64,000 nt of DNA. It comes from Candidatus Omnitrophota bacterium. GTDB taxonomy: Bacteria > Omnitrophota > Gorgyraeia > B26-G9. Shown here in pieces: positions 10,419-58,320 of the stretch (within the stretch, counting starts at the first letter, position 1; each line of letters starts with the position of its first letter). The position numbers and the translations under genes are program-made. Under the pieces are notes generated by a model. It was not told the DNA's origin and made no database searches. It saw only the letters and a program-made list of their open reading frames with translations. The stretch lies in the NCBI GenBank assembly GCA_043806135.1, contig JAZDHG010000031.1, positions 1,110 to 65,109 on the forward strand, in the 5' to 3' direction.

Positions 10419-10566
10419 AGACATCCTATAAAGAGAAAGCAGGAGGATGTCTTGATTACATAGATGAAAAAAGAGATGACAGTGATTAAGGAAAGAGATT
10501 CTTTTTATTTAGGTTGTAAAAATTTTTGTAATACAATACAGCCATCAAGGCAGAAGATTAATGGTT

Positions 10567-10610
10567 TAATCTTCGTAATCTATTGATAATCGTTGTAATC
10601 AGGTGTAATC
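10567..10610 (+). promoter_or_regulatory. Array of five (G)TAATC pentamers at ~10-bp phasing upstream of glgA
   Basis: TAATC starts at 10567, 10576, 10587, 10596 and 10606, giving spacings of 9, 11, 9 and 10 nt. The stretch reads cgtaatctattgataatcgttgtaatcaggtgtaatc. Confidence 0.5.
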
Positions 10611-18880: not shown

Positions 18881-18989
18881 ACACGAATAAACACGAATTA
18901 CACACTAATTAATATAAATATATCGATGTAAACAAGTAATGTTTTAAATCAGTGGTTTTTGTGTTAGATTTGTGAGAATTTGTGTATTT

Positions 18990-25798: not shown

Positions 25799-27358
25799 AT
25801 GAATACTTTAAATATAATAATTGGAGTAACAAGTGCGGTAATCTTTTTTATATTGGGATATTTTTTTAGACTTTTCGGCGCGGCAAAGAAAGTGCAAAGT
25901 GCCGAAGAAAAAGCAAAAATAATCCTGGAGGAAGCAGAACGTCAGGTAATGGCTAAAAAGAAGGAAGCAATCCTGGAAGCCAAAGATCTTCTTTATAAAA
26001 CAAGAATTGAATTTGAAAAAGAATCCCAAGGCAGGCGCCAGGAGTTACTAAACATTGAACGCAGGCTGATCAGCAGAGAGGAAAACCTGGACAGAAAGGT
26101 CGACCTTTTAGAGAAAAAGGAAAGAGAAGTAAGCAATAAGGCAAAGGTTTTAAGCGACAAGGAAAAAGAAAACCAGGAAAGGCAAAATGAGCTTAACCAG
26201 CTGATTTTGGAAGAAAAAGAGCGTCTGCAGAAAGTCTCCGGACTTAGCAGCGAAGAAGCGAAAAAAATACTCCTAAAACATATGGAGGGCGAGATTAGAT
26301 ATGATGCTAATCTCATGATAAAAAGAATTGAGCAGGAAGCAAAGGATGTTGCTGATAAAAAAGCAAAGCAGATCATCAGCTTGGCAATTCAGCGCTGCGC
26401 GGCTGAGCATACCGTAGAATCAACAGTTAGCGTAGTTAGTCTGCCCAGTGATGATATGAAGGGAAGAATTATCGGGCGCGAAGGACGTAATATAAGATCT
26501 CTTGAAGTAGCAACAGGCGTGGATATTATTATTGATGATACTCCTGAGGCAGTAACCCTTTCTGGATTTGATCCGATTAAAAGAGAGATTGCCAGACTCT
26601 CACTGGAGCGTCTTATTGCAAACGGACGGATACACCCGGCCCGTATAGAAGAAGTTGTCGGCAAAATAAAAAAGGAAATGGACCAGAGCATAAAAGAAGA
26701 AGGAGAAAAAGCTTCTTTTGATGTCGGCGTGCAGAGGATACACCCGGCGATAATCAAACTTTTAGGCCGTTTAAAATATAGAACAAGCTATGGCCAGAAT
26801 GTGCTGCAGCACTCTAAAGAAGCGGCATTTATAATGGGATTGCTTGCCGGACAGCTTGAGCTTGATATTACACTGGCAAAAAGAATCGGTTTTTTCCATG
26901 ATCTGGGAAAAGCTGTGGACCATGAGCTGGAGGGAACACATGCGGCGATAGGGGCTGAGCTGGCAAGAAAATACGGCGAGAATCAGACCGTAGTGGATGC
27001 AATTGCGGCGCATCATGATGAAGCTGAGTCTAACTCCATTTATGGAATACTTGTACAAGCAGCTGATGCAATAAGCGCAACAAGACCTGGTGCTCGCCGG
27101 GAAACCCTGGAGATATATATTAAACGCCTTGAAAAACTGGAAGCAATTGCCGATTCATTCAAAGGCGTGGATAAGGCTTTTGCTATACAGGCCGGCCGTG
27201 AGATCAGGGTTATTGTTAATCCGGATAAGGTGGGGGACCAGGAAGCAACGATCCTTGCCAGGGATATTACCAAGAAGATCGAGAATGAACTTGAATACCC
27301 AGGTCAGGTAAAAGTAACAGTGATCCGGGAAAAGCGGATTGTTGAATTCGCAAAATAG
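25799..27358 (+). CDS. rny: Ribonuclease Y
   Basis: The product has an N-terminal transmembrane helix and coiled coil. The KH domain is [25 protein letters not shown], and an HD domain follows. The length is 519 aa. Confidence 0.9.
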
Positions 27359-27411
27359 ATTAGCTGATTTGCTCATGAGCTCATGAGCTGATGAGCTGAG
27401 GTTTTAAGCTT

Positions 27412-28200
27412 ATGAAGATATTAATGATCGGTGACATAGTAGGAGAGCCGGGAAGACGTGCGGTAAGTAAAGGCATTGCTTCTTTAAGGGAGCGCGAGCA
27501 AATAGATTTTGTGATCGCCAATGCGGAAAACTCTGCGGCTGGCTCAGGCATAACCGCTAAAATTTACAATGAACTTATCAGCTGCGGGGTTGATGTGCTT
27601 ACCTCAGGAGATCATGTTTTTAAGAAAAAGGAAATAGTCGAGATATTGAATTTCCACGAAAGATTGATCAGGCCGGCTAATTACCCGGATGAGGTTCCGG
27701 GCAGCGGATACGTTATAGTCCGGGCTTCCAACGGAGAAAAAGTAGGCGTGATCAATGTAAACGGCAGAGTTTTTATGGAGCCGCTGGATTGTCCTTTCCG
27801 TAAAGCGCAAGAGCTTATAAAAAAAATCAAACAGGAAACGCAGATTATAATTGTTGATATCCATGCAGAGGCAACCAGTGAAAAAGTTGCCATGGGATGG
27901 TATCTTAACGGCCAGGTAAGCGCTGTATTGGGAACGCATACCCATGTGCAAACTGCAGATGAGCGCATACTTCCCGAAGCTGACCATACAGCCTACATTA
28001 CGGATGTGGGCATGAGCGGTCCGATTGATTCGGTAATAGGCAGAAAAATTGAGCAGATACTTCCGAGATTCTTAAATCATATTCCAATGAGATTTGAAGT
28101 TGCCGATAAAAATGTGCAGCTGCAGGGAGTCCTTATGGAAGTAGACCCAGTGAGCGGGAAAGCGAAGTCGATTAAAAGAGTTAAGGAGAGCATTACTTAG
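27412..28200 (+). CDS. YmdB-family metallophosphoesterase (2',3'-cAMP phosphodiesterase-like), partner of rny
   Basis: MKILMIGDIVGEPGRRAV matches the N-terminus of the TIGR00282 family. The gene is adjacent to rny. Confidence 0.8.
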   Translation: MKILMIGDIVGEPGRRAVSKGIASLREREQIDFVIANAENSAAGSGITAKIYNELISCGVDVLTSGDHVFKKKEIVEILNFHERLIRPANYPDEVPGSGYVIVRASNGEKVGVINVNGRVFMEPLDCPFRKAQELIKKIKQETQIIIVDIHAEATSEKVAMGWYLNGQVSAVLGTHTHVQTADERILPEADHTAYITDVGMSGPIDSVIGRKIEQILPRFLNHIPMRFEVADKNVQLQGVLMEVDPVSGKAKSIKRVKESIT

Positions 28201-28360
28201 AGGGACACCCCGGCATATCTAAATGCTTTGCTGATTCTCAAAATATCCCACTTTTTCAAAAACTATTGAAAACTTATCTGTGCACTGTATAATAGTTTAT
28301 GCTATCCTTGTTTAAAAATTTCAAATCAAGGGACTGTTGCGAAACACAGTCCTACACAGA

Positions 28361-28450
28361 ATAACACAGATTAAAGACACGAGATTATCACAGATTATCG
28401 ATGAGCATTTTGTGATTATCAATGAAATATCTGCTATTATCTGTGCGTTT
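28361..28450 (+). promoter_or_regulatory. Array of CACAGA(TTA)/GATTATC repeats upstream of the V-ATPase operon
   Basis: The stretch reads cacagaataacacagattaaagacacgagattatcacagattatcgatgag…gtgattatcaatg…ctattatctgtg. Several copies sit at ~10-bp spacing. It contains the complement of the TAATCTGTG motif seen in the 52-nt repeat. Confidence 0.4.
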
Positions 28451-28539
28451 TTATTGTTTTGCAACAGAGCCATAAAATAACGTATGATGTTATAGAATTT
28501 ATTGATTATTAAACCCTGATTTTAAAAAAGAGGTGAAAA

Positions 28540-29166
28540 ATGTCGGATAAACTGGAAAAGCTTACTAAACAGATATATGAAGAGGGCGTAGGAAAGGCTA
28601 AAGAAGAGGCGGAAAATATTATTAAAGCGGCTGAGGCGGAAAAGAGAAAGATCCTGCGCGCAGCAAGAGTTGAGGCACAGGATATAGCCAATGTCGCCAA
28701 GAAAGATGCGGAGGAGCTTAAAAACAGGGTAGCTTCTGAGGTGCGTATGGCGAGCTCGCAGTCACTGGCCTTGCTAAGGCAGAAAATAACCGAACTTATA
28801 TGTGTAAAAGTATCCGAGTCTTCAGTTAATGGCTTATTCGATGATCCGGATTTTTTGAAAAATATGCTTGAAACTGTTATGAAGGAGTGGATGGCTAGCG
28901 GATGTCAAAGAGGCCAGGCCTTTTATATAACACTTCCCAAGAAGATGCAGGGAGAGATCCAGGATTATTTCCTGGAGAAGGGTAAAAAAGAGCTGGATAA
29001 TAAACTGGAGATCGAATTTGACGAAAAGATCAAAAGCGGCTTTGTGATCAGTCCTAAAGACGGCAGCTATAGGATCGGTTTTACAGAAGAAGATTTTAAG
29101 GCTCTTATAGAATATTTTTTGCGTCCGCATATAAAGAAATTTCTTTTTAAGGATGAAACTAAATAA
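28540..29166 (+). CDS. atpE: V/A-type ATPase subunit E
   Basis: The 208-aa product has a coiled-coil N-terminus and a globular C-terminus. It is the first gene of the E-x-A-B-D-I-K cluster. Confidence 0.75.
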   Translation: MSDKLEKLTKQIYEEGVGKAKEEAENIIKAAEAEKRKILRAARVEAQDIANVAKKDAEELKNRVASEVRMASSQSLALLRQKITELICVKVSESSVNGLFDDPDFLKNMLETVMKEWMASGCQRGQAFYITLPKKMQGEIQDYFLEKGKKELDNKLEIEFDEKIKSGFVISPKDGSYRIGFTEEDFKALIEYFLRPHIKKFLFKDETK

Positions 29167-29990
29167 TGAGTAGACAGTATTATTATCTTATTGCATCACT
29201 TGGGCAGTTGCGCCTTGATGATTATAAAGAGCCTTACCGCGTGGATGAGTTTGTTTCGGAACTTCATAAAAACCTTACACCTGTTCATAGCGGGTATGTG
29301 CGGGATATACTGCGTATCTATGATAATGCGCACATCGTCGACTGCATGCTGGAAAACCAGAAACCATGGTTATTATGCAAAGGCAACTGGACATTTGATG
29401 AGCTTAAGAAAAAAATGCCTTTTAATGAATACGATACGGATGCTTATATAGCTTGTTTTATGAAAGAGTTTAATAGGCTTAAACAAAATACCCAGAAAAT
29501 TTCAAGAGCTGATATCGAAAAAGTGATTTGGCATATTTTTTACTCTAAAATGGTAAATCATGATAACGCCTTTATCCGCCGTTACTTCTCTTTTGACCTG
29601 GAACTAAAGAATGTTCTGGCAAGTTTTAATAAGCGGAAATTTAGTCTTTCAGAGGATATCCTGATGCGTGTAAGCGATAGTGGAATAATGGACAAATTAA
29701 GTTCTTCAACGGCTAATGACTTTGGATTGTCCAAAGAGCTGGAGTATATCCCGGGATTACTAGATGCTTTTTTAAAGAAAGACAGCGTTAATATCGAAAA
29801 ATTTACAGACCAGCTGCGTTGGGACATGATCGACCAGATAAACTCGCTTGTGTATTTTCAGATCGATGTTTTGCTGGGATATCTTATTAAACTGATGCTT
29901 GTAGAGCGTTGGATTTCTCTTGATGAGGTTACAGGCAAAGAGAGTTTTCAAAAAATCATGGAGATTAAAACAGAAGAAGTATATCAGTAG
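29166..29990 (+). CDS. Hypothetical protein conserved in V-ATPase operons (position of the Chlamydia-type uncharacterised subunit; possible C/d analogue)
   Basis: The call rests on context only, between atpE and atpA. The 274-aa product is start-stop overlapped with atpE. Confidence 0.4.
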   Translation: MSRQYYYLIASLGQLRLDDYKEPYRVDEFVSELHKNLTPVHSGYVRDILRIYDNAHIVDCMLENQKPWLLCKGNWTFDELKKKMPFNEYDTDAYIACFMKEFNRLKQNTQKISRADIEKVIWHIFYSKMVNHDNAFIRRYFSFDLELKNVLASFNKRKFSLSEDILMRVSDSGIMDKLSSSTANDFGLSKELEYIPGLLDAFLKKDSVNIEKFTDQLRWDMIDQINSLVYFQIDVLLGYLIKLMLVERWISLDEVTGKESFQKIMEIKTEEVYQ

Positions 29991-30008
29991 AATATTTGTG
30001 GAGGAACC

Positions 30009-31766
30009 ATGGCGACAAAAGGAAGGGTTATTGCTGTTGTCTCTAATCTAGTAACAATAGAAGTGGACGGACCAGTCAGTCAAAATGAGATCTGCTATAT
30101 AGATTTAGACGGTATAAAACTTAAGGCAGAGGTAATTAAAATTAACGGAAACCGTGCCTCTGCACAGGTCTTTGAAAGTACGCGGGGACTTCGTTTCGGC
30201 TGTAGTGCAGAATTTACAGAGCATATGCTTGAGGTTGAACTCGGGCCCGGCCTTCTTTCGAAAAAATATGACGGCCTGCAAAATGATCTCGAAGCAATGA
30301 ACGGGGTATTTTTAAAAAGAGGAGAATTAACAGCGAGATTTTCTTATGAACAAAAATGGGATTTTGTTCCGATAGCCAAAGTGAACGATAGGGTTAAAGC
30401 AGGAGATTTCCTCGGCGAGGTCAATGAAAACTGGGTTAAACATAAAATTATGGTGCCTTTTGCTCTGGAAGGTCTATGGCAGATAGAATCAATTGCCAAA
30501 AAAGGCTCATATACGGTAAAAGATACCATTGCCGTGTTAAAGGACAAAGACGGAAAGAAACAGAATGTCAGCATGATGCAGCGCTGGCCGGTAAAAGTAC
30601 CGGTTCGTGCCTATGCGGATAAGCCGATAGCTTATAAATTGCTTCAGACAGGGGTAAGGCTTATTGACACGCTAAACCCTATAGTAGAAGGAGGTACAGG
30701 ATTTATTCCCGGACCTTTTGGTTGCGGCAAAACAGTTTTGCAGCATATTATTGCCGCTAATGCCCAGGTTGATATGGTAATTATCTGCGCTTGCGGAGAA
30801 AGAGCGAATGAGGTAGTGGAGATATTTAAGGAATATCCGGAGCTTGAAGATCCGTTTACCGGACGCAAACTTATTGAACGCACGATTATTATTTGCAATA
30901 CTTCCAATATGCCCGTAGCTGCACGAGAGGCCTCTGTTTATACAGCAATGACAATCGCCGAATATTACCGTCAGATGGGTTTAAAGATATTACTGCTTGC
31001 CGATTCTACATCCCGTTGGGCTCAGGCACTCAGAGAGATGTCCAACCGAATGGAAGAATTGCCGGGCCCGGACGCTTTCCCCATGGATTTGACGGCGATT
31101 GTGGCTAATTTTTATTCAAGAGCAGGCCTGGTTGAGCTCTCTAACGGACAGACAGGGTCGGTAACCTTTATCGGAACGGTTTCTCCTGCGGGAGGGAATT
31201 TTAAAGAGCCGGTGACCGAATCCACCAAGAAAGTAGCCCGTTGTTTTTATGCTCTTTCCCAGAAGCGCGCCGATAGCAAAAGATATCCTTCGATAGATAC
31301 AATAGAAAGTTATTCAAAATACCTTGAATATAAAGAAGTGCAGGAATACATGGCGGAAAATCTGGAACCGCATTGGATAGAAAAGATTTTGTACATACGC
31401 GATGTCTTGCTCAGGGGAAAAGAGTCATATGACCGGATAAATATTTTGGGCGATGACAGCGTGCCTGTTGAATATCACGAGCGTTACTGGAAATCTGAAC
31501 TGATTGACTTTGGATTTCTGCAGCAGGATGCTTTTGACGAGGTTGATAAGGCAACGCCTATGGATAGGCAAAAATACATGATGGATATTATATACAATAT
31601 ATGCAAAGCAGACTTCAAATTTGAAAATTTTGACGGAGTCGCTGATTACTTTAAAAAAATCATAAATTTAATAAAACAGATGAACTATTCTAAATTTCAG
31701 GAAGAAGAATTTAAGAAGTTTGAAGACGAACTGCAAAGTGTCTTGATGGAACGAAAGGTCAATTGA
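30009..31766 (+). CDS. atpA: V/A-type ATPase catalytic subunit A
   Basis: The Walker A motif is GPFGCGKTV. The product is 585 aa and has the non-homologous region typical of A subunits. Confidence 0.95.
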   Translation: MATKGRVIAVVSNLVTIEVDGPVSQNEICYIDLDGIKLKAEVIKINGNRASAQVFESTRGLRFGCSAEFTEHMLEVELGPGLLSKKYDGLQNDLEAMNGVFLKRGELTARFSYEQKWDFVPIAKVNDRVKAGDFLGEVNENWVKHKIMVPFALEGLWQIESIAKKGSYTVKDTIAVLKDKDGKKQNVSMMQRWPVKVPVRAYADKPIAYKLLQTGVRLIDTLNPIVEGGTGFIPGPFGCGKTVLQHIIAANAQVDMVIICACGERANEVVEIFKEYPELEDPFTGRKLIERTIIICNTSNMPVAAREASVYTAMTIAEYYRQMGLKILLLADSTSRWAQALREMSNRMEELPGPDAFPMDLTAIVANFYSRAGLVELSNGQTGSVTFIGTVSPAGGNFKEPVTESTKKVARCFYALSQKRADSKRYPSIDTIESYSKYLEYKEVQEYMAENLEPHWIEKILYIRDVLLRGKESYDRINILGDDSVPVEYHERYWKSELIDFGFLQQDAFDEVDKATPMDRQKYMMDIIYNICKADFKFENFDGVADYFKKIINLIKQMNYSKFQEEEFKKFEDELQSVLMERKVN

Positions 31767-31819
31767 TGACTGAACTTATGGAGCGTAAGAGGACATAAGT
31801 TCACAGTCAGAGAATGACC

Positions 31820-31991
31820 CAGCCCTCTGTGCAGATAGAGGAAAGATATTTAAAAAAGAAAGATAATAGCAATAACTAGCCCTCACAGGGTTGATCAGGG
31901 AATAGCTTAGAGGGCTGGATTTAATTCGCGCATATCATTTAACTTCACAATGTTCGCTAAATAATGCGCTCATTAAAGAAAGGAAAATATC
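31820..31991 (+). ncRNA. Conserved 5'-leader element, copy 3 (in the 225-nt spacer between atpA and atpB)
   Basis: It begins with CCCTCTGTGCAGATAGAGG. The core CAGGGAATAGCTTAGAGGGCTGGATTTAATTCGCG follows, then a hairpin GCGCATATCATTTA…TAAATAATGCGC, then CTCATTAAAGAAAGG and the ATG. Confidence 0.45.
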
Positions 31992-33368
31992 ATGAACCAG
32001 AAAACTCCGGCGTTTACAACTGTATATACAAAGATAGAGCAGATTACTAAAGCAACATGTTCTTTAAGGGCAGGCGGCGCATTTAATGAGGAAATGGCAC
32101 TTATTGACGGGCGGCCGGCTCAGGTTGTGAAAATACAGGGAGATTTGATCACATTACAGGTTTTCTCTGGAACCCAGGGGATCGGTACGGATGTTGATGT
32201 CGTGTTCTTGGGAGAACCGCCAACCCTTAAAGTAGGTCCGGATTTATCGGGAAGATTTTTTAGCGCATACGGTACGCCGATTGACGGAGGCCCTGAGTTG
32301 GAGGGAAAGAAGGTTCCGATCGGAGGTCCCAGTGTAAATCCGGTGCGCCGCAAACAGCCTTCAGAGCTTATTAGTACGGGGATTGCCGGTATTGATCTGA
32401 ACAATACCCTAGTGGGAGGACAGAAAATTCCCTTTTTTGCCAATCCGGATCAGCCCTTTAATCAGGTTATGGCTAATGTTGCTTTGCGTGCCGGAGCGGA
32501 CAGGATTATTTTAGGCGGTATGGGTTTATCCAATGACGATTATCTTTATTACCGGCGTATATTTGAAGACGCAGGTGTTTTGGAAAAGATAACCTGTTTT
32601 ATAAACACAACAGATGATCCGCCAGTCGAGCGTTTGCTGATCCCGGATATGGTCTTAACTGCGGCAGAATATTTTGCAGTTGAGAAAAAAGAAAAAGTTT
32701 TGGTCTTACTTACAGATATGACGCTTTTTTGTGATGCTTTGAGTATTGTCTCTAACCGTATGGATCAAATCCCGAGTAAAGACAGTATGCCTGGTTCTTT
32801 ATACAGTGATTTGGCGAAGATATATGAAAAAGCGGTTCAGTTTGAAGAAGGCTCGATCACTATTGTTGCGGTAACAACGCTGAGCGGAGAGGATATTACA
32901 CATGCAATCCCGGATAATACCGGATATATTACCGAAGGACAGCTTTTTTTGCGGCGCAATACGGATATTTCTAAAGTTATCGTTGATCCTTTCCGTAGTT
33001 TGTCTCGTTTGAAACAGCTGGTGATCGGCAAACGCACAAGAGAAGATCACCCCCAGGTTATGAATGCAGGTATCCGTTTGTATTCTGATGCCGCATACGC
33101 GAAAACAAAACAGGAGAACGGGTTTGACCTTACTGATTATGATGAACGGGCATTGAAATTCGCCTTTGATTACAGCAATGAACTCTTGGCCATTGATATT
33201 AATATTGATATAGATAAGATGATCAATACCGCCTGGAGGTTGCTGGCAAAATATTTTAGCAAAGATGAAATTGGCATTAAACAGGAGATGGTGGACAAAT
33301 ACTGGCCGAAAGAAGACGGAGAACAGGCTAGTAGCGAGAATAAATCGACAGACGGGAGAAAAAACTGA
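31992..33368 (+). CDS. atpB: V/A-type ATPase subunit B
   Basis: The 458-aa product has the F1/V1 alpha/beta fold without a canonical P-loop, which is the regulatory B subunit. Confidence 0.9.
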   Translation: MNQKTPAFTTVYTKIEQITKATCSLRAGGAFNEEMALIDGRPAQVVKIQGDLITLQVFSGTQGIGTDVDVVFLGEPPTLKVGPDLSGRFFSAYGTPIDGGPELEGKKVPIGGPSVNPVRRKQPSELISTGIAGIDLNNTLVGGQKIPFFANPDQPFNQVMANVALRAGADRIILGGMGLSNDDYLYYRRIFEDAGVLEKITCFINTTDDPPVERLLIPDMVLTAAEYFAVEKKEKVLVLLTDMTLFCDALSIVSNRMDQIPSKDSMPGSLYSDLAKIYEKAVQFEEGSITIVAVTTLSGEDITHAIPDNTGYITEGQLFLRRNTDISKVIVDPFRSLSRLKQLVIGKRTREDHPQVMNAGIRLYSDAAYAKTKQENGFDLTDYDERALKFAFDYSNELLAIDINIDIDKMINTAWRLLAKYFSKDEIGIKQEMVDKYWPKEDGEQASSENKSTDGRKN

Positions 33369-33511
33369 AGGACGAGAGACGATCGTTTGAGTTGTTCACT
33401 ATGATGAAAGACGAAAAGACGTAAAGCGAATTAAATTTGCGAGTTGCGCGTCAGCGAGTTTGCGTGTTGGAAAATAGAAAAACTGAGAAAATTTTTATAT
33501 TGATTTTTTGA

Positions 33512-33558
33512 AGTAACTTTTAGTAACCAATAGTAACTGTTTGTAACTGCTGGTAACC
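33512..33558 (+). promoter_or_regulatory. Five GTAAC pentamers at exact 10-bp period upstream of atpD
   Basis: Read directly: agtaacttttagtaaccaatagtaactgtttgtaactgctggtaacc. The 17-mer TAGTAACTGTTTGTAAC is shared with 58275. Confidence 0.5.
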
Positions 33559-33583
33559 GAAGAATAATAACTAGGGATGAAAC

Positions 33584-34177
33584 GTGTCGCAGATGCAATA
33601 TAACAAGACTTTTTTAATGCAGATCAATAAAGATCTGGAGATCAGACAAAACGCTTTGCCGGTCCTGCAAAGCAAGGAAGCTGCTTTGCGTGCGGAAACT
33701 CGTCGTATGCGCATTCAGATCAAAGAAATTGCTAAAAAAGTAGAGGCAAAAATACAGTCTCTAAAATCTGTGCAGCGGCTATGGAGCGAATTTCCGGATA
33801 TTATCCATGTTAAAAAAGTCAACTTTAAGACAAAAAAAATCGCCAGTATAAAAGTGGGTATTGTCGAAAGCATCGAATATGATATTGGTTCATTTGAATT
33901 GTTTGCGCATCCGGCATGGTTTATGAATGGACTGCATAGCATAAAGGAAGTATTAGGTCTAAAAATAGAAGTGTTCAATTTAGAGAAGGTTTTGGAAAGT
34001 GTTGAGTATGCACGCAGGAAGACAACACAAAAGGTAAATCTATATGAAAAAGTACAGATACCTTTTTTTGAAGAGGCAATGCGTAAGATAAAGAGGTTTT
34101 TGGAAGATGAGGAAAATCTGTCTAAATCTTCCCAAAAGGTAATAAAGAGAAGAATGGAAGAGGCTAGTATCGTATGA
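33584..34177 (+). CDS. atpD: V/A-type ATPase subunit D
   Basis: The 197-aa product is a coiled-coil central-stalk protein in the conserved position after B. The gene starts at a GTG, with an alternative ATG 9 nt downstream. Confidence 0.75.
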   Translation: MSQMQYNKTFLMQINKDLEIRQNALPVLQSKEAALRAETRRMRIQIKEIAKKVEAKIQSLKSVQRLWSEFPDIIHVKKVNFKTKKIASIKVGIVESIEYDIGSFELFAHPAWFMNGLHSIKEVLGLKIEVFNLEKVLESVEYARRKTTQKVNLYEKVQIPFFEEAMRKIKRFLEDEENLSKSSQKVIKRRMEEASIV

Positions 34178-35955
34178 TAACCCTGATGGAAAAAATCACA
34201 ATCTTGATATTTCACAAGGCTAAAGAGGATTTTTTGCATTCCTTGCAGGAACTCGGCGTTATACATATTTCTCAGGATATAAAAAAAGATTCGCATGAGG
34301 GATTGAAGGAAATAAGAAACAGAATAGACAGAGCGGATGCTTTCCTGAAGGCAGCAAAAAAATCATCATCTGCAGTCTCTTCTTCTGTCCGGGGTGAAGG
34401 ACAATCAGCCTTATCTGTTATTGGGGAGCATGAGAATATTCAGCAGATTATAAACGTTTCTCAGGATGAATTGGATAAGGTGGACAGGCAGATACGCAAT
34501 CTTGCTCCCTGGGGGGAATTCAGCCGGGAATCTATGGAAAAGGTCAGGCTTTCAGGATTGCGCTTACGTTTTTTTATAACTCCAGTAAAGAATTTCGACT
34601 TTTGCGGTGTTGATGAGAATATTTGTGCGTTCGAGATCTCCCGGGATAAAACATATGTGTATTTTGTCGTGTTTGAAAAGGAAGATGTAGTAAAACTTAA
34701 TTGTGATGAGTTTTTTTATCCGGATTTAGATCTGAAGACGTTGCAGAATAAAGCACAGGCAATAACAGAAACTATTAGGGAAAGCGAGAAAAAATTATCC
34801 GCTTTGTTCTCTCAGGGTTCAGCTATCGAAACTTACCTCAATGAGCAGAAAAGCGGCTTGAATTATGCAACGGTAAACAGTAACCTGACGAGTGCGGCTG
34901 AAGATACTATTTATATAATAAACGGATGGCTGCCTCAAGATTTAAAGTTAAAAGTACAGGCTTGGCTGGATGAAAAGGATATTTACTGCTATTTTTCCAA
35001 GCCAAATGTAGGAGAGGATGTCCCGATTTTACTAAAAAATAATCCCTTTGCAAAGTTGTTTGAACCGATTACAAAGATGTTCTCTTTGCCTAATTATACC
35101 GAATTTGACCTGACGGCTTTTTTTGCCCCGTTTTTTACATTATTTTTCGGTTTTTGCCTTGGAGATGCAGGGTATGGATTGATCATCCTCTTATTATGCG
35201 CAATATTCTGGAAAAAAGTCAGCCAGAATAAAAGACCCTTGTTGATATTAGGAGCGGTCTTTGGTGTTTCCACTTTTCTTTTCGGACTTATTTCAGGAAA
35301 TCTGTTCGGGGTGGAACTTGTAAAAATTGCGTTTATAAAGAATTTAGTATTGTTTAACCAGAACCAGCTCTTTTATCTTTCTCTAAAGATAGGGGTAGTT
35401 CAGATATTTTTCGGACTGTTTCTAAAAGCATTTAGTAAATTAAGACAATTCGGATTTACGGCAAGTCTTTCAAGCTGGGGATGGCTAATAATGCTAACCG
35501 GAGTTTTGCCGCTTGTTCTGGCTTTTCTTTCAGATGCGGCCGCACCTTTATGGGCCCTATGGACATCCTTTACAGGACTTACGCTTATAATGCTGTTTAA
35601 TGACTTAAAGGCTAATATTTTTATCAGGCTGGGCAAAGGATTATGGGAGCTTTATGGAGGGCTTAGCGGATTTTTGGGAGATGTTTTAAGTTATGTGCGG
35701 CTTTTTGCCCTGGGTTTGTCAGGTGCAGTACTAGGTCTTGTTGTCAATGAAATAGGCATGCAGTTTCGGGCTATACCATTCGTAGGATATTTTATAACGT
35801 TTGTTTTTTTGATCGTGGGCCATTCGGCTAATTTACTTCTAAGCGGTTTGTCCAGTTTTGTACATCCGCTGCGTCTTACATTTGTTGAGTTTTATAAAAA
35901 TGTCGGTTTTGAAGGCGGAGGAAAGGCATATAATCCATTTAAAAAAATAAATTGA
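34174..35955 (+). CDS. atpI: V/A-type ATPase subunit I (a-subunit, membrane)
   Basis: The 593-aa product has a cytoplasmic N-terminal half and a C-terminal half of about 7 transmembrane helices with a conserved Arg-containing helix. Confidence 0.85.
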   Translation: MITLMEKITILIFHKAKEDFLHSLQELGVIHISQDIKKDSHEGLKEIRNRIDRADAFLKAAKKSSSAVSSSVRGEGQSALSVIGEHENIQQIINVSQDELDKVDRQIRNLAPWGEFSRESMEKVRLSGLRLRFFITPVKNFDFCGVDENICAFEISRDKTYVYFVVFEKEDVVKLNCDEFFYPDLDLKTLQNKAQAITETIRESEKKLSALFSQGSAIETYLNEQKSGLNYATVNSNLTSAAEDTIYIINGWLPQDLKLKVQAWLDEKDIYCYFSKPNVGEDVPILLKNNPFAKLFEPITKMFSLPNYTEFDLTAFFAPFFTLFFGFCLGDAGYGLIILLLCAIFWKKVSQNKRPLLILGAVFGVSTFLFGLISGNLFGVELVKIAFIKNLVLFNQNQLFYLSLKIGVVQIFFGLFLKAFSKLRQFGFTASLSSWGWLIMLTGVLPLVLAFLSDAAAPLWALWTSFTGLTLIMLFNDLKANIFIRLGKGLWELYGGLSGFLGDVLSYVRLFALGLSGAVLGLVVNEIGMQFRAIPFVGYFITFVFLIVGHSANLLLSGLSSFVHPLRLTFVEFYKNVGFEGGGKAYNPFKKIN

Positions 35956-35998
35956 TATTTTATTACTGTTACAGTGAGTGCAAAGAAGCAAGTTTTAA

Positions 35999-36499
<501 letters not shown>

Positions 36500-37329: not shown

Positions 37330-37812
37330 ATGGAAATTGACAGCGTAAGAATAGAAATTCCAAAAGAGGCTAATGTTATAGTCGGCCAAAGCCATTTTAT
37401 TAAAACAGTGGAGGATATTTATGAGGCAATGGTGGGCTCTGTTCCGGGTATAAAATTCGGGGTCGGGTTTTGCGAGGCCTCAGGCGCATGCCTGGTACGC
37501 TCTGAAGGTAATGACCGGGAATTAAAGGAACATGCTGAAAAGACTGCTCTTGAAATTGCTTGCGGACATTGTTTTGTTCTGTTTATCAGAGATGCCTTTC
37601 CTATAAATGTGATGAGAGCGCTCAAAAATGTTCCGGAAATATGCCGTATTTTCTGTGCTACGGCTAATCCGCTTGAAATACTTACTGCTGAAACCGTCCA
37701 GGGCAGAGGGATTATCGGGGTCATTGACGGCTGCAAGCCCAAGGGGATAGAGAAGACAAGCGATATTAAATGGCGTAAAGATCTGCTGCGGACCATAAAA
37801 TATAAGCTTTGA
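37330..37812 (+). CDS. PF04008-like (so-called adenosine-specific kinase family) protein
   Basis: The 160-aa product carries the motifs HFIKTVEDIYEA…PGIKFG…CEASG…GHCFVLF…NPLE. These match that family from memory. Confidence 0.5.
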   Translation: MEIDSVRIEIPKEANVIVGQSHFIKTVEDIYEAMVGSVPGIKFGVGFCEASGACLVRSEGNDRELKEHAEKTALEIACGHCFVLFIRDAFPINVMRALKNVPEICRIFCATANPLEILTAETVQGRGIIGVIDGCKPKGIEKTSDIKWRKDLLRTIKYKL

Positions 37813-37879
37813 TACTTTTTAATATAATTCATATTTGACAATTTATTTTTTAGGTGTATTCTAATAATTGAGGATATAT

Positions 37880-38217
37880 TATGCATTGTCCAAAGTTTAT
37901 TGATTTTACAAGGGAATGCCAGTATAAAATAGGATTTCTGCCTTTAGACACTCGCCACTTTTGCTCTACCCGCAAATACAAAAAAGTGCCCGTTTTATAT
38001 AGCCATTCATAATGTCGGATATTTTTGCAAATATCTTAAACTCTGTCCAGCCTTTGAGCATTTTAAAACGGAAAATTTCGATAAATTTGTGCAAATAGCA
38101 AACGAATACTGCCTTTCTGAAAAGAACAATGTGCGTTGTTCAAGATTTAAGCTAAGAACTGCAGGGAAAAATCCGCCTGCGAAATTAATGCCGGATGGAA
38201 GTGTTTTGGAAAAATAA
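37880..38217 (+). pseudogene. Cys-rich small ORF(s) with three CP(K/F/A)F-type repeats, split by a frameshift at an A6 run (about 37965); intact length would be ~112 aa
   Basis: Frame 1 reads MHCPKFIDFTRECQY…KKVPVLYSHS*. Removing one A from the A6 run continues it as …KKCPFYIAIHNVGYFCKYLKLCPAFEHF…GSVLEK*. Confidence 0.3.
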
Positions 38218-38244
38218 ACAGTTAGTTAAATATAAAGGAGGGAT

Positions 38245-38358
38245 ATGATGAGTTGGATATTGTTCGGTCAGATCGTCTTGTTGATGGTAATATATTCTTT
38301 TATTAAACAACTGGTTAAGTGTATGCATGATACAAAATGTAAAATCTGTAAAAAATAA
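38245..38358 (+). CDS. Small membrane peptide with C-terminal Cys-rich tail (37 aa)
   Basis: An RBS GGAGGG sits 5 nt before the ATG. The product is MMSWILFGQIVLLMVIYSFIKQLVKCMHDTKCKICKK. Confidence 0.3.
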   Translation: MMSWILFGQIVLLMVIYSFIKQLVKCMHDTKCKICKK

Positions 38359-38389
38359 TTTAAAAGGGAAATCGAACGTCTTTCGCATC

Positions 38390-38600
38390 TTCCGCTAGCC
38401 CTTGTAAAACAGCTCAGAACTAGAACAAGTTCAGTCCAGAGCTGCATAGTACCGATCTATGATTTGGTTCTATGCAGGGCCGTGCTCAGATGTCTCACTC
38501 CCTAAGGGGAAACCCTTATGGCGTGAGCCACGTTGTGGCAACGCCACTCACGTGGTTTTCCCCTTCCCTATCTAAAGACGATAAGCTTTCTGAGTGCTTG
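38390..38600. ncRNA. GC-rich highly structured segment of unknown class (nested inverted repeats), adjacent to tRNA-Glu
   Basis: Three hairpins are visible. The first is CTGCATAG…CTATGCAG. The second is GGGGAAACCC…CGTGAGCCACG. The third is GTGGCAACGCCAC, nested within CACGTGGTTTTCCCC. No long ORF is present, and GC content is much higher than in flanking DNA. Confidence 0.3.
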
Positions 38601-38738
38601 GGATTAATTTGATAACGAATTTATATTCACACTATTCCATAAATTCTATCTCATTATTAATATTCCTCTTTTGGTTCGAACCCCAGGAAGAGCTATCAGA
38701 AAATAAAAAGGCCACTCTATCGAGTGGCTTTTTATAGT

Positions 38739-38816
38739 TGGTACCCCCAAGGGGATTCGAACCCCTGTTTTATGGCTGAGAACCACATGTCCTGGACCGG
38801 GCTAGACGATGAGGGC
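38739..38816 (-). tRNA. tRNA-Glu (anticodon CUC), with encoded CCA
   Basis: The reverse complement is GCCCTCATCGTCTAGCCCGGTCCAGGACATGTGGTTCTCAGCCATAAAACAGGGGTTCGAATCCCCTTGGGGGTACCA. This is collinear with E. coli tRNA-Glu (TCGTCTAG…CAGGAC…GGGGTTCGAATCCCC). The anticodon loop TTCTCAG gives CTC. Confidence 0.85.
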
Positions 38817-38958
38817 AAAAGTTTATGCTTTGGAAATTATATCATAATTTATTTTAAAGTCAATGCTTCTATGTCATTCTATGTAACATTTTGAGCAATG
38901 CTGAATATGTTACTGAATAGGTTACATTGGTTATAAATACTTCCTCCTAAGGCGAATA

Positions 38959-39072
38959 TTAAAAATTCCGCCACTCCCGCGCTGTGATCAATCCCTTGTC
39001 CGGCGTTATTCCAAAGATCGCAAATACAATTGCCAGCAGCAGGTCCATAATTCCGCTGACAATATTGACCAT
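38959..39072 (-). CDS. Possible 37-aa small membrane peptide
   Basis: An AGGA sits 6 nt before the ATG. The product is MVNIVSGIMDLLLAIVFAIFGITPDKGLITAREWRNF. No other support was found. Confidence 0.15.
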   Translation of the reverse strand: MVNIVSGIMDLLLAIVFAIFGITPDKGLITAREWRNF

Positions 39073-39179
39073 GGTGTCCTAACGAAATTACGCAAGAGAA
39101 TGCCTTTGTTTTAAAACAGTAAATAATTTTGGTATAGGCATATTGTTACTTTTATTAAAAAAATGGATTGCTGTTAATG

Positions 39180-39260
39180 CTCAGTAATTAGGTAACGTTT
39201 TTGGGTTATAGTTACGATGCCGTTTCGTTTTTCGGTTACGGTAATTGTAAAAACAAAAAT
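39180..39260 (+). promoter_or_regulatory. GTAA(C/T)/GTTAC-rich array upstream of the DUF2079 gene
   Basis: Read directly: cagtaattaggtaacgtttttgggttatagttacgatgccgtttcgtttttcggttacggtaattgtaaaa. Confidence 0.3.
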
Positions 39261-39475
39261 ATTTAATAAGTCCTCTGTTGACATGCTAAATATTTTTGAA
39301 GAACTTAACCATAGCCGAAAGACGATACGGGGTTCGTTACCTTTGCCGTTATCGAACTATTGAGCTAGTACACCTGGTTTTTTTAATATTTGGCAAAAGT
39401 TTCTTTATATTATAGTTTTAGACTTTTTACTTTTTCCTTCGTAATCTTTATCTTAGATGCTATAATACTGCTCAA

Positions 39476-44825: not shown

Positions 44826-44943
44826 TCGCTAACCGGCTTTAAAAACGGGCTATTCTTTTTTAGGGTGGAAGAATTTTTGTAAGATAGTAAGAATGAAGAG
44901 GCTAGATAGAAACAATAATGGACAACGAATCTGTGTAATCCTG

Positions 44944-44994
44944 TTTTAATCTGTGAAATCAGGTTCTTGCTGTTATTCTAAACAAGAAAGAACC
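44944..44994 (+). repeat. 52-nt dispersed hairpin repeat, copy A (upstream of purB)
   Basis: Read directly: ttttaatctgtgaaatcaggttcttgctgttattctaaacaagaaagaacc. The stem is GGTTCTT/AAGAACC with a variable loop. The flank cgaatctgtgtaatcctg at 44927-44943 is also shared with copy B. Confidence 0.6.
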
Positions 44995-56638: not shown

Positions 56639-56876
56639 ACAACTTACGGAACGAAGTGAACGTAAGTTGTAAAATCGAACTTATCCCGAACCTGATGAGT
56701 AAAAATTTAGTATAAATTTTTGCGAAAGTTTTAGAGGTTCGGGGAAAGTGAATATAAAGTTATAATACGGAACGAAGTGAACGTAAGTTGTAAAATCGAA
56801 CTTATCCCGAACCTATGAGTAAAAAATAAAAAAATTTTTACGAAAGTATTAAAAGGGCGGGAATAACGGAGCAGGA
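56639..56876 (+). repeat. Tandem direct repeat, 2 x ~119 nt, upstream of glyA; each unit has internal stem-loops and a CUGAUGAG-stem-CGAAA-like core (intact only in unit 1)
   Basis: Unit 1 spans 56639-56757 and unit 2 spans 56758-56876. They share the ~58-nt core tacggaacgaagtgaacgtaagttgtaaaatcgaacttatcccgaacct(g)atgagtaaaaa…cgaaag. Confidence 0.6.
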
Positions 56877-56963
56877 AATCTTGTAATAAATTTGGATATG
56901 GCCTAAAGGCCTATAATTTATGCCGGGCATAAATTATCTACTCATTGAGGAGGAAAATAATAA

Positions 56964-58202
56964 ATGAGTGAGTTAAAAAAAACTGATATTGCAATATATA
57001 ACGCGATTAAAAAAGAATTAAAAAGACAGAGAGAGCATATAGAATTAATTGCCAGTGAGAATTTTACCTCACGCGCGGTTATGGAAGCGCAGAGTTCTGT
57101 TCTTACCAATAAATATGCCGAAGGATATCCGGGAGCCCGCTGGTACGGAGGCTGTGAACATGTTGACGTTGCCGAACAATTGGCGATCGATAGGGCAAAG
57201 GAGATATTTCAGGCCGAGCACGCAAATGTTCAGCCGCATTCAGGAGCTCAGGCGAATATGGCCGTGTTTATGAGCTGTCTTAAAGCAGGGGATAAAGTGC
57301 TTGCCTTGGATCTTGCCTGCGGAGGACATCTGTCGCATGGCCATCCTAAAAATTTTTCCGGTTTATTTTATGACGTAAAATTTTACCAGGTTAATCGCCG
57401 GACTGAACAGCTTGATTATGATGAAATTTCCTCTTTAGCAAAGAAACACAAACCCCGGCTTATTCTTGCCGGCGCTTCTGCGTATCCGAGATTTATCGAT
57501 TTTAAAAAATTCCGTAAAATTTGCGATAGCGTCGGAGCATATCTGATGGTCGATATGGCGCACATTGCCGGGCTTGTTGCCGCAGGCGTGCATCCCTCTC
57601 CTGTGCCTTATGCTGAGTTTGTAACGACCACAACGCACAAAACACTGCGCGGACCAAGAGGAGGCTTGATACTTTGCCGCAAGGAATTTGCCAAGAGTAT
57701 TGATTTAAATGTTTTTCCGGGTACTCAAGGCGGACCGCTTATGCATGTTATTGCTGCTAAGGCGGTGGCTTTGAAAGAAGCTTTAATGCCTGGTTTCAAA
57801 AAGTACCAGATACAAGTAGCTTCGAACGCAAAAGAACTGGCTGGTGCATTAAAGAAAAGAGGATTCCGTATTGTCGCCGGTGGCACGGATACGCATTTAA
57901 TGCTTGTCGACTTAACAAACAGAGATATCACAGGAAAAGAAGCGCAAATAGCTTTAGGTGAAGTGAATGTTACGATCAATAAAAATCTTATTCCTTTTGA
58001 TAAAAAATCGCCGTTTTTGACCAGCGGTATAAGATTGGGAACTCCGGCTGTGACTACAAGAGGAATGAAGGAAAAACAAATGCATGTTATTGCTGACATT
58101 ATTGATCAAATTCTACAAAAAGATCAGACTATTACAAAGGAAAAACAGCGTGAAATGAAAAGCCACGTGCGGCTTTTAACGCAAAAGTTTCCCTTATATT
58201 GA
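56964..58202 (+). CDS. glyA: Serine hydroxymethyltransferase
   Basis: The PLP-Lys region is [15 protein letters not shown]. The product is 412 aa. Confidence 0.95.
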
Positions 58203-58207
58203 AAAAC

Positions 58208-58307
58208 AGTTACTAAGGGTTACTAAAAAGTTAATAAAGGTTATAATGATTAAAGGTTTTTTAGTTTTGGAGTAACTGATAGTAACTGTTTGTAACCAAT
58301 GGTAACA
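58208..58307 (+). promoter_or_regulatory. GTTAC array (4x, 10-bp period) followed by GTAAC array (4x, 10-bp period) upstream of the dCMP deaminase gene
   Basis: The first array reads cagttactaagggttactaaaaagttaataaaggttataa. The second reads agtaactgatagtaactgtttgtaaccaatggtaaca. Confidence 0.5.
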
Positions 58308-58320
58308 GGATTAAAATATT

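Follow-up and report, generated by a model that had tools for sequence, protein, structure and literature searches.

Helically Phased GTAAC Arrays in an Omnitrophota Genome as Candidate Arms of an Intergenic Repeat Family Related to PF05635 Cassettes

Introduction

The intervening sequences (IVSs) of 23S rRNA genes have terminal inverted repeats, form long stems, and are excised by RNase III. The PF05635 protein family was discovered inside these rRNA elements, and since then, to our knowledge, no function has become known for it beyond that of Avd, a nucleic-acid-binding pentamer that serves as accessory protein of diversity-generating retroelements and for which we know of no sequence-specific repeat target. 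The matching of repeats to protein subunits is illustrated by TRAP, which binds triplets in single-stranded RNA, one repeat per ring subunit. On DNA, both repeat sets of parC from plasmid R1 share one orientation. Each of them consists of five short repeats placed 11 bp apart, the two sets flank an unbound center, and the repeats are bound cooperatively by the oligomerizing ParR (PMC2241845).

Here we describe arrays of the pentamer GTAAC, repeated at a period of 10 bp in intergenic spacers of an Omnitrophota genome, and compare them with these systems. We hold it plausible, at about an even chance, that the arrays are the arms of an intergenic repeat family of Omnitrophota and allied uncultivated bacteria, the full-length form of which brackets a PF05635 gene. 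In the best-supported reading, the window, that is, the whole 64-kb stretch of DNA that was analyzed, would hold two ORF-less members of this family, a two-arm element at 58209–58306 and a solo arm at 33513–33557. Since neither a PF05635 gene nor a remnant of one was found in the 64-kb window, membership is argued from arm homology and architecture only, and on these grounds the family identity is proposed with moderate confidence.

Phased Arrays in the Window

The window contains type IV pilus genes, polA, glgA, rho, prfA, purine genes, a V-ATPase operon (28540–36499, + strand), glyA, dcd, and nrdR-nrdD-nrdG, among others, and all of its ORFs treated as protein-coding are carried on the + strand. 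The motif GTAAC-N5-GTAAC was matched eight times, against 0.03 matches expected from dinucleotide-preserving shuffles of the window, and none of 100 shuffles reached eight. No further four-unit phased GTAAC stretch with at least 16 of 20 matching positions was found elsewhere in the 64 kb, nor in 20 shuffles. Phased identical 5-mers of any kind were present in 4 of the 29 intergenic regions, as against 0.12 regions expected; the coding sequence of the window, 56.6 kb, had none. The arrays are real and highly non-random, and chance is excluded.

The first array lies in the 215-bp atpB-atpD spacer (33369–33583), where the five GTAAC copies at an exact 10-bp period reported in the initial annotation were confirmed at 33513, 33523, 33533, 33543, and 33553 of the + strand. 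This solo arm (33513–33557) has the spacers TTTTA, CAATA, TGTTT, and TGCTG, is not accompanied by a partner GTTAC arm, and was found to recur unchanged in the Logan contigs L001 and L002. It ends 26 nt before GTG 33584 and 35 nt before ATG 33593 of the V-ATPase subunit D gene. The start of atpD is itself ambiguous, the longest ORF running from GTG 33584 (197 aa) and the NCBI-derived 194-aa product implying ATG 33593. The fold of the solo arm has a z-score of only −0.75, so it cannot form a hairpin, yet its units are perfectly intact. In three congeneric MAGs, the atpB-atpD junction is array-free and measures 30–48 bp, as opposed to 215 bp in the window; outside the array, no similarity was found for the spacer. 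These short junctions mark the spacer of the window as an insertion-like polymorphism of the V-ATPase operon.

The second locus, between glyA and dcd, holds a two-arm element. Its left (5′) arm (58209–58244) starts 6 nt past the glyA stop codon (58200–58202) and reads GTTAC, GTTAC, GTTAA, and GTTAT on the + strand, i.e., GTAAC-type on the − strand; an A/T-rich center (58245–58271) follows; and the right (3′) arm (58272–58306, + strand) ends 14 nt before ATG 58321 of the dCMP deaminase gene (dcd). The four GTAAC copies described for the right arm stand at 58272, 58282, 58292, and 58302, exactly 10 bp apart. As to the four GTTAC copies attributed to 58208–58250, GTTAC was present at 58209 and 58219, but the units at 58230 and 58240 are GTTAA and GTTAT, and one step measures 11 bp. 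RNA corresponding to 58203–58320 is predicted to form a hairpin with a folding energy of −28.3 kcal/mol (z −3.97). The sequence reported to be common to both loci was recovered as an 18-mer, ATAGTAACTGTTTGTAAC. The spacer positions of the arrays at 33513 and 58272 are 60% identical; Tandem Repeats Finder (TRF) gave matches of 74–87% on the window arrays.

A third phased locus had been claimed at 39180–39260, some 220–290 nt upstream of the DUF2079 gene. This stretch is rich in pentamers, with 5 per 500 bp where the mean is 0.63, but its spacing is irregular and shows no helical phasing. The earlier description thus needs partial correction at the second locus and does not hold at the third. 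The surrounding region is unusual in itself: 1.66 kb (37813–39475) contain no + strand ORF of at least 80 aa, and a − strand ORF (37419–37886) overlaps the first 74 bases. The region includes tRNA-Glu(CTC) (38739–38816, − strand), the only − strand gene recognized in the window, its sole Rfam match is sub-threshold (Phe_leader, E 0.03), and the equivalent place in relatives is taken up by a YgbA_NO gene and small ORFs.

Both GTAAC arrays are overlapped by predicted σ70-like consensus matches of equal geometry, TTGTAA-N16-AATAAT at 33541–33568 (+ strand), with its –35 hexamer in the penultimate array unit, and TTGTAA-N16-TAAAAT at 58290–58317 (+ strand). Across 169 arms outside the window, no –10 element was found at a fixed distance from the arm, and the predictions at the two window loci are therefore weak evidence; the match common to both probably reflects their common descent.

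Other repeats were observed in the window. An array of five (G/T/A)TAATC units (10563–10610), missed earlier, has spacings of 9, 11, 9, and 10 bp and ends 6 nt before the ATG (10617) of glgA (glycogen synthase), downstream of polA; it accounts for one of the four intergenic regions with phased identical 5-mers. Another motif family, ACACAGA(A/T)TA or ACACGAAT(T)A together with the reverse complement TAATCTGTG, recurs at a 10–11-bp period at 28354–28450, 18881–18911, and 44931–44960, upstream of the V-ATPase operon, rpsP (S16), and purB. The rpiB-glyA spacer is filled by a 121-bp tandem duplication (56645–56888; 2.0 copies, 81% identical), and an 8-bp repeat, GATGAGCT, occurs five times at 27358–27399 between rny (RNase Y) and ymdB. 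Two relatives, L122 and L124, carry between ymdB and the V-ATPase operon genes for a DHODB_Fe-S_bind protein and a GltD-like oxidoreductase, a pair missing from the window (around 28200–28540) and from L123.

A Divergent Two-Arm Element in Other Genomes

When one genome per species (596 Gb in all) was scanned for four GTAAC spaced 10 bp apart, at least 119 stretches were found, against about one expected by chance (2 × 5.96e11/4^20). Many of these matches are 10-bp microsatellites with identical spacers, not related to the element. Variable spacers were found in 49 of the 127 arrays scored among the matches listed, window included, and these arrays came mostly from Omnitrophota, Planctomycetota/Brocadiia, and unclassified MAGs; many of them were accompanied by a second arm. 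Moreover, a metagenome scan for GTTACx2-N10-40-GTAACx3 yielded at least 120 loci. Our literature search on GTAAC repeats and on Omnitrophota promoters or repeats found no description of such elements.

The element has the layout [GTTAC N5]n, a center of 5–40 bp, and [GTAAC N5]n, and its arms are divergent throughout. In a set of arrays not selected for having two arms, among the matches listed, the partner GTTAC arm lay 5′ in 18 cases, only 3′ in none, and on both sides in one. No phase constraint was detected across the centers of 5–40 bp. Arms of three, four, five, and six units were counted 53, 18, 64, and 7 times among the matches listed, so that the mode is five, with a sharp fall at six. 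Internal units were exact in 87% of cases among the matches listed, AAC being the most conserved part, and position 3 of the pentamer varied least (altered in 5 of 692 internal units). The spacers are G-poor, T-rich, and variable, and the innermost unit of an arm is often GCAAC or GTTGC. No other abundant pentamer phased at an exact 10-bp period was found in the examined loci, except for overlaps with GTAAC.

Within one genome, the arms follow a genome-specific unit consensus, and their spacer identity is 0.42–0.75 (six genomes), compared with 0.45 between genomes. With only 42–75% spacer identity within a genome, the arm copies are not recent duplicates of one master. In one higher-G+C lineage, the JAEAMG/CAZOYW MAGs (L126, L158, L105, and L053), the center carries a conserved motif, approximately GATAACACGCTGGCG, which other lineages do not have. 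In the Ga0126336 metagenome (L140, L141, L143, L159, and L203), satellite-like clusters were observed in which many GTTAC and GTAAC arms alternate over several hundred bp, with arms of up to 11 units and the spacers ACAGT and AGGGT.

Cassettes Bracketing a PF05635 Gene

In three Omnitrophota-type loci (L077, L043, and L255–263), the space between the arms is occupied by a gene of the PF05635 family (23S rRNA-IVS protein/four-helix-bundle). The cassette consists of five GTTAC-type units, a short spacer, the PF05635 ORF, and four to five GTAAC-type units; its 5′ arm ends 5–12 nt before the start codon, its 3′ arm begins at the stop codon, and in the full-length element the gene measures about 400 nt. 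The polarity of the arms around the ORF is identical to that of the ORF-less elements, which look like derivatives of the PF05635 cassette; such an origin would explain their fixed polarity.

L077, L043, and L255 are orthologous versions of a single locus, in genomes that have diverged deeply: identity is 54–58% for the upstream radical-SAM/SPASM gene and 66–73% for the PF05635 proteins. The five-unit arms were kept, the 5′ arm in all three loci and the 3′ arm in L077 and L043 (four to five units in L255). When the arms, read manually, were compared between L077 and L043, 48 of 50 pentamer positions were identical, as against 16 of 40 spacer positions. In L255, both arms changed together, to GTTAA and TTAAC. 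An unrelated A+T-rich genome (L193) has a PF05635 gene between complete two-arm elements, so that the link between the family and PF05635 in Omnitrophota was seen at two independent loci only, the orthologue set and L193. A fifth PF05635-like ORF (L152) has no arms nearby.

The association extends to plasmids of Cyanobacteriota, Gemmatimonadota, and Bacteroidota, on which 9–10 of 14 PF05635 genes are flanked by inverted tandem-unit arrays made of 7–8-nt units, purine-rich upstream and pyrimidine-rich downstream; around one of the remaining genes the arrays run in direct orientation, and around three they are weak or missing. Inverted tandem-unit arms with this purine-rich 5′ and pyrimidine-rich 3′ composition, as would be expected of an IVS-like member, were also found at 58209–58306 of the window. 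Several of the plasmid PF05635 genes are wedged between neighboring genes. On four cyanobacterial plasmids (L264, L265, L266, and L273), most of them with inverted heptamer arrays, the sites lie between the genes for RNR alpha and beta (opposite strand), a toxin ABC transporter and a secretion protein, cas6 and cas4, and cas10 and cmr3. No PF05635 relative was confirmed in viral contigs, and our literature search found no description of PF05635 together with tandem repeats.

Neighboring Genes and Distribution Among Relatives

The initial annotation had placed the arrays in promoter regions and had asked whether the associated genes form a coherent regulon. The elements are about 95% intergenic (8 of 180 inside a crude ORF call, among the matches listed), and where both neighbors were called, 69 of 86 lie between co-directional genes, 9 between divergent, and 8 between convergent ones, at 9–30 nt from each neighbor. 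The two arms are equally strong irrespective of gene orientation, and solo five-unit arms occur in either orientation to the downstream gene (sense at 33513 of the window, antisense in L077). The arrays are thus not promoter-specific modules, most of them occupying very short spacers between co-directional genes with an arm strength independent of orientation.

In about 100 loci among the matches listed, the neighbors were unrelated housekeeping genes, such as those for S10, GroEL, L31, S1, Adk, Ndk, GAPDH, enolase, DapA/B, KdsA, MutM, and V-ATPase E, identities that, except for those scanned with Pfam, were read off N-terminal sequences. A conserved gene association was considered and rejected, as orthologue pairs (DapA, MutM, a metallophosphoesterase, and V-ATPase E) were found at chance expectation. 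With unrelated neighbors and common orthologues at chance level, a coherent regulon was not supported.

Among relatives, the elements are patchy. When the orthologous junctions were inspected in seven other Omnitrophota genomes, no intact array and one decayed copy were found. The array-free gaps measure 25–48 bp in three close relatives, which are congeneric MAGs with 82–91% protein identity (GCA_054039915.1, GCA_022013205.1, and GCA_054040495.1), and 6–136 bp in four more distant genomes. At the glyA-dcd junction, the second close relative has a gap of 25 bp that includes one GTTAC, and that of the third includes none; a homologous element in decay was recognized there in L246 (GTTAC, GTTAA, and ATTAC in one arm; GGAAC, GTAAA, and GTAAC in the other). 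In the four more distant Omnitrophota genomes, 82 kb around the V-ATPase operon contained no arrays. The empty sites and the decayed L246 copy indicate that the elements are not only patchy but able to decay.

Comparison With Described Systems and Alternative Explanations

The closest likeness is with 23S rRNA IVSs that carry a PF05635 ("S23p") ORF. In both cases, a small PF05635 gene lies inside inverted repeats with a predicted long stem, presence is patchy among relatives, shorter ORF-less versions exist, and the insertion is into transcribed DNA. The elements described here differ in that they occupy intergenic spacers of protein-coding operons rather than rRNA, that their arms are made of five helically phased 10-bp units of which only the pentamer is conserved, and that ORF-less copies and solo arms are dispersed, with RNase III cleavage only putative. 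Sets of five short repeats about one helical turn apart around a central segment are shared with parC/ParR, from which the elements differ by inverted arms, many chromosomal copies, and the absence of parM/parR genes. A repeat count with free spacers that would equal a subunit count recalls TRAP and, putatively, Avd, although TRAP is unrelated in fold.

The site of EbfC/YbaB is GTnAC, which is palindromic with n free (PMC2665219). GTAAC matches it, but recognition of this kind is not supported, given that position 3 is the least variable of the pentamer and that the arms are strictly polar. No homologue of MraZ or YbaB was found in the examined loci, a weak negative result because the query sequences were approximate.

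It could be supposed that the element acts purely as RNA, its long hairpins serving as RNase III sites, mRNA stabilizers, or terminators, and that no protein reads the pentamers. In fact, the ORF-less elements fold with z-scores of −4 to −6.5, the 5′ and 3′ arms of the L077 and L043 cassette RNAs are predicted to pair into a stem that surrounds the ORF, and in other phyla the two arms of a PF05635 gene are complementary to each other whatever their sequence. The joint change of both L255 arms from GTTAC/GTAAC to GTTAA/TTAAC points the same way, and the excision of rRNA IVSs by RNase III offers an established precedent. A hairpin, however, requires neither an exact 10-nt period nor a five-unit mode, and pairing would not account for pentamers far better conserved than spacers (48/50 vs 16/40) or for solo arms that remain intact, such as that at 33513. 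Register-specific complementarity between the spacers of the two arms was not detected (3.15 observed vs 3.24 under the null), and this register-independent pairing gives no covariation proof of the stem; no Rfam family matched the arrays or spacers at the gathering threshold. We regard an element acting only at the RNA level as rather unlikely.

That the arrays are a decaying selfish repeat of the MITE or REPIN kind, devoid of present host function, with arms that would be subterminal transposase-binding repeats, appears improbable to us. Short intergenic repeats within operons, inverted doublets, and patchiness are features of REP/BIME/REPIN and of cyanobacterial STRR, and the PF05635 genes on cyanobacterial plasmids are flanked by heptamer arrays that we take to be STRR. 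The palindromic intergenic placement, the filled and empty sites among close relatives, the decayed copy in L246, the genome-specific unit consensus, and the center motif conserved in one lineage all fit such a repeat. Unlike in these families, however, only a pentamer within each 10-bp unit is conserved here, and copies within a genome are not near-identical. Membership in the REP/REPIN or MITE class was rejected on the spacer identity of 0.42–0.75 and on the lack, within 2.5 kb of 165 loci, of a RAYT-like gene or any recurrent transposase-like family or regulator; no target-site duplication was found at the elements either. Moreover, pentamers and unit number are conserved at the orthologous locus, where the neighboring gene is only 54–58% identical, which implies long-term selection and argues against a selfish repeat in decay.

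The initial annotation had favored operators of OmpR/PhoB-type or similar regulators, bound head-to-tail by oligomers and defining a regulon that would include atpD, dcd, and the DUF2079 gene, which we now consider quite improbable. The CpxR box is GTAAA-N5-GTAAA, and the head-to-tail pentamer or hexamer repeats with a 10–11-bp period that are typical of OmpR/PhoB sites are present in the arrays. Same-orientation half-sites of 5–6 bp at 10–11 bp are likewise found in the WalR/VicR site TGTWAH-N5-TGTWAH, whose half-site is fitted by TGTAAC (PMC4168254). Both arrays also overlap the same σ70-like prediction just upstream of start codons. Nevertheless, no coherent gene set emerged, the DUF2079 stretch is not phased, the arrays are missing from the orthologous junctions of seven relatives, and a Pfam scan of 45 window ORFs gave NrdR as the only regulator. 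The modal arm of five units is odd, and the second arm is always divergent, even where it faces the 3′ end of the upstream gene, a fixed layout unlike that of dimer-based sites. The orientation to the downstream gene is not fixed, and the arms bracket a PF05635 gene instead of forming paired dimer sites in a regulon. The suggestion of iterons fared no better, with no rep gene, many chromosomal copies, several of them per contig, and only three array matches in 2.9 million viral contigs.

Finally, intrinsically curved DNA, microsatellite slippage, or chance can be dismissed as highly improbable, for although the 10-bp period is near the helical repeat and the genome scan also matched many true microsatellites of 10 bp, in which the spacers are identical, the curvature predicted for the window arrays (22–29 degrees per 60 bp in a wedge model with approximate parameters) is at the background level of 26.5 ± 13.5 and far from the 116 of phased A-tracts, the spacers differ between units, so that the window arrays are not microsatellites, and chance is excluded by the shuffles.

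Proposed Mechanism

The reading that we prefer, arrays as arms of a family with PF05635 cassettes as its full-length form, admits two candidate partners of the arms, an oligomeric protein and an IVS-like RNA stem putatively cut by RNase III. The general idea of an oligomeric reader, already put forward in the initial annotation, gains from the same-orientation phased units (87% exact), the constrained AAC, the free spacers, and the five-unit mode, whereas the specific readings then attached to it did not hold. Each unit would be read by one subunit of an oligomer, and such unit-by-unit reading would explain why the pentamer is conserved and the spacers are free, why the period is exact and five the commonest number of units, and how solo arms can stay intact.

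The most economical candidate reader would be the PF05635 protein encoded by the cassette itself. This family is reported to resemble Avd, PDB 4DWL, and PDB 2GSC (PMC10053308). Among solved structures, the only one matched by a cassette protein was 2GSC, which has five chains, and it is for this reason that the PF05635 protein is put forward as putative reader. Pairing the five chains with the five units is numerology at this stage, and it counts against the model that a small ring cannot follow a straight duplex for 50 bp.

In RNA, the transcribed arms may pair into a long stem that encloses the center or the ORF. Oligomer reading and an IVS-like stem are non-exclusive, and both fit the data. 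For the operons concerned, the likely effect would be transcript processing or uncoupling at the junction rather than control of a dedicated regulon. More tentatively, it is possible that stand-alone PF05635 proteins are in general oligomers that recognize tandem-unit arrays, one unit per subunit, in which case the cassette would be self-contained and the scattered arms would be extra docking or processing sites.

Implications

If this last proposal is true, the reading of arrays by an oligomer would cover the Omnitrophota GTAAC arrays and possibly the cyanobacterial heptamer arrays, and it would amount to a new class of protein-plus-repeat element that spans phyla. As regards annotation, arrays of this kind should not be mistaken for operators of a regulon but understood as marks of insertion-like elements. 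Such elements split operons, in the window the V-ATPase operon and the glyA-dcd-nrd cluster, within which they may create RNA-processing or protein-docking sites. If the link to PF05635 holds, this abundant family of unknown function would gain a concrete and testable target, and the intergenic repeats of Omnitrophota, perhaps together with the cyanobacterial heptamer arrays, would be parts of one system.
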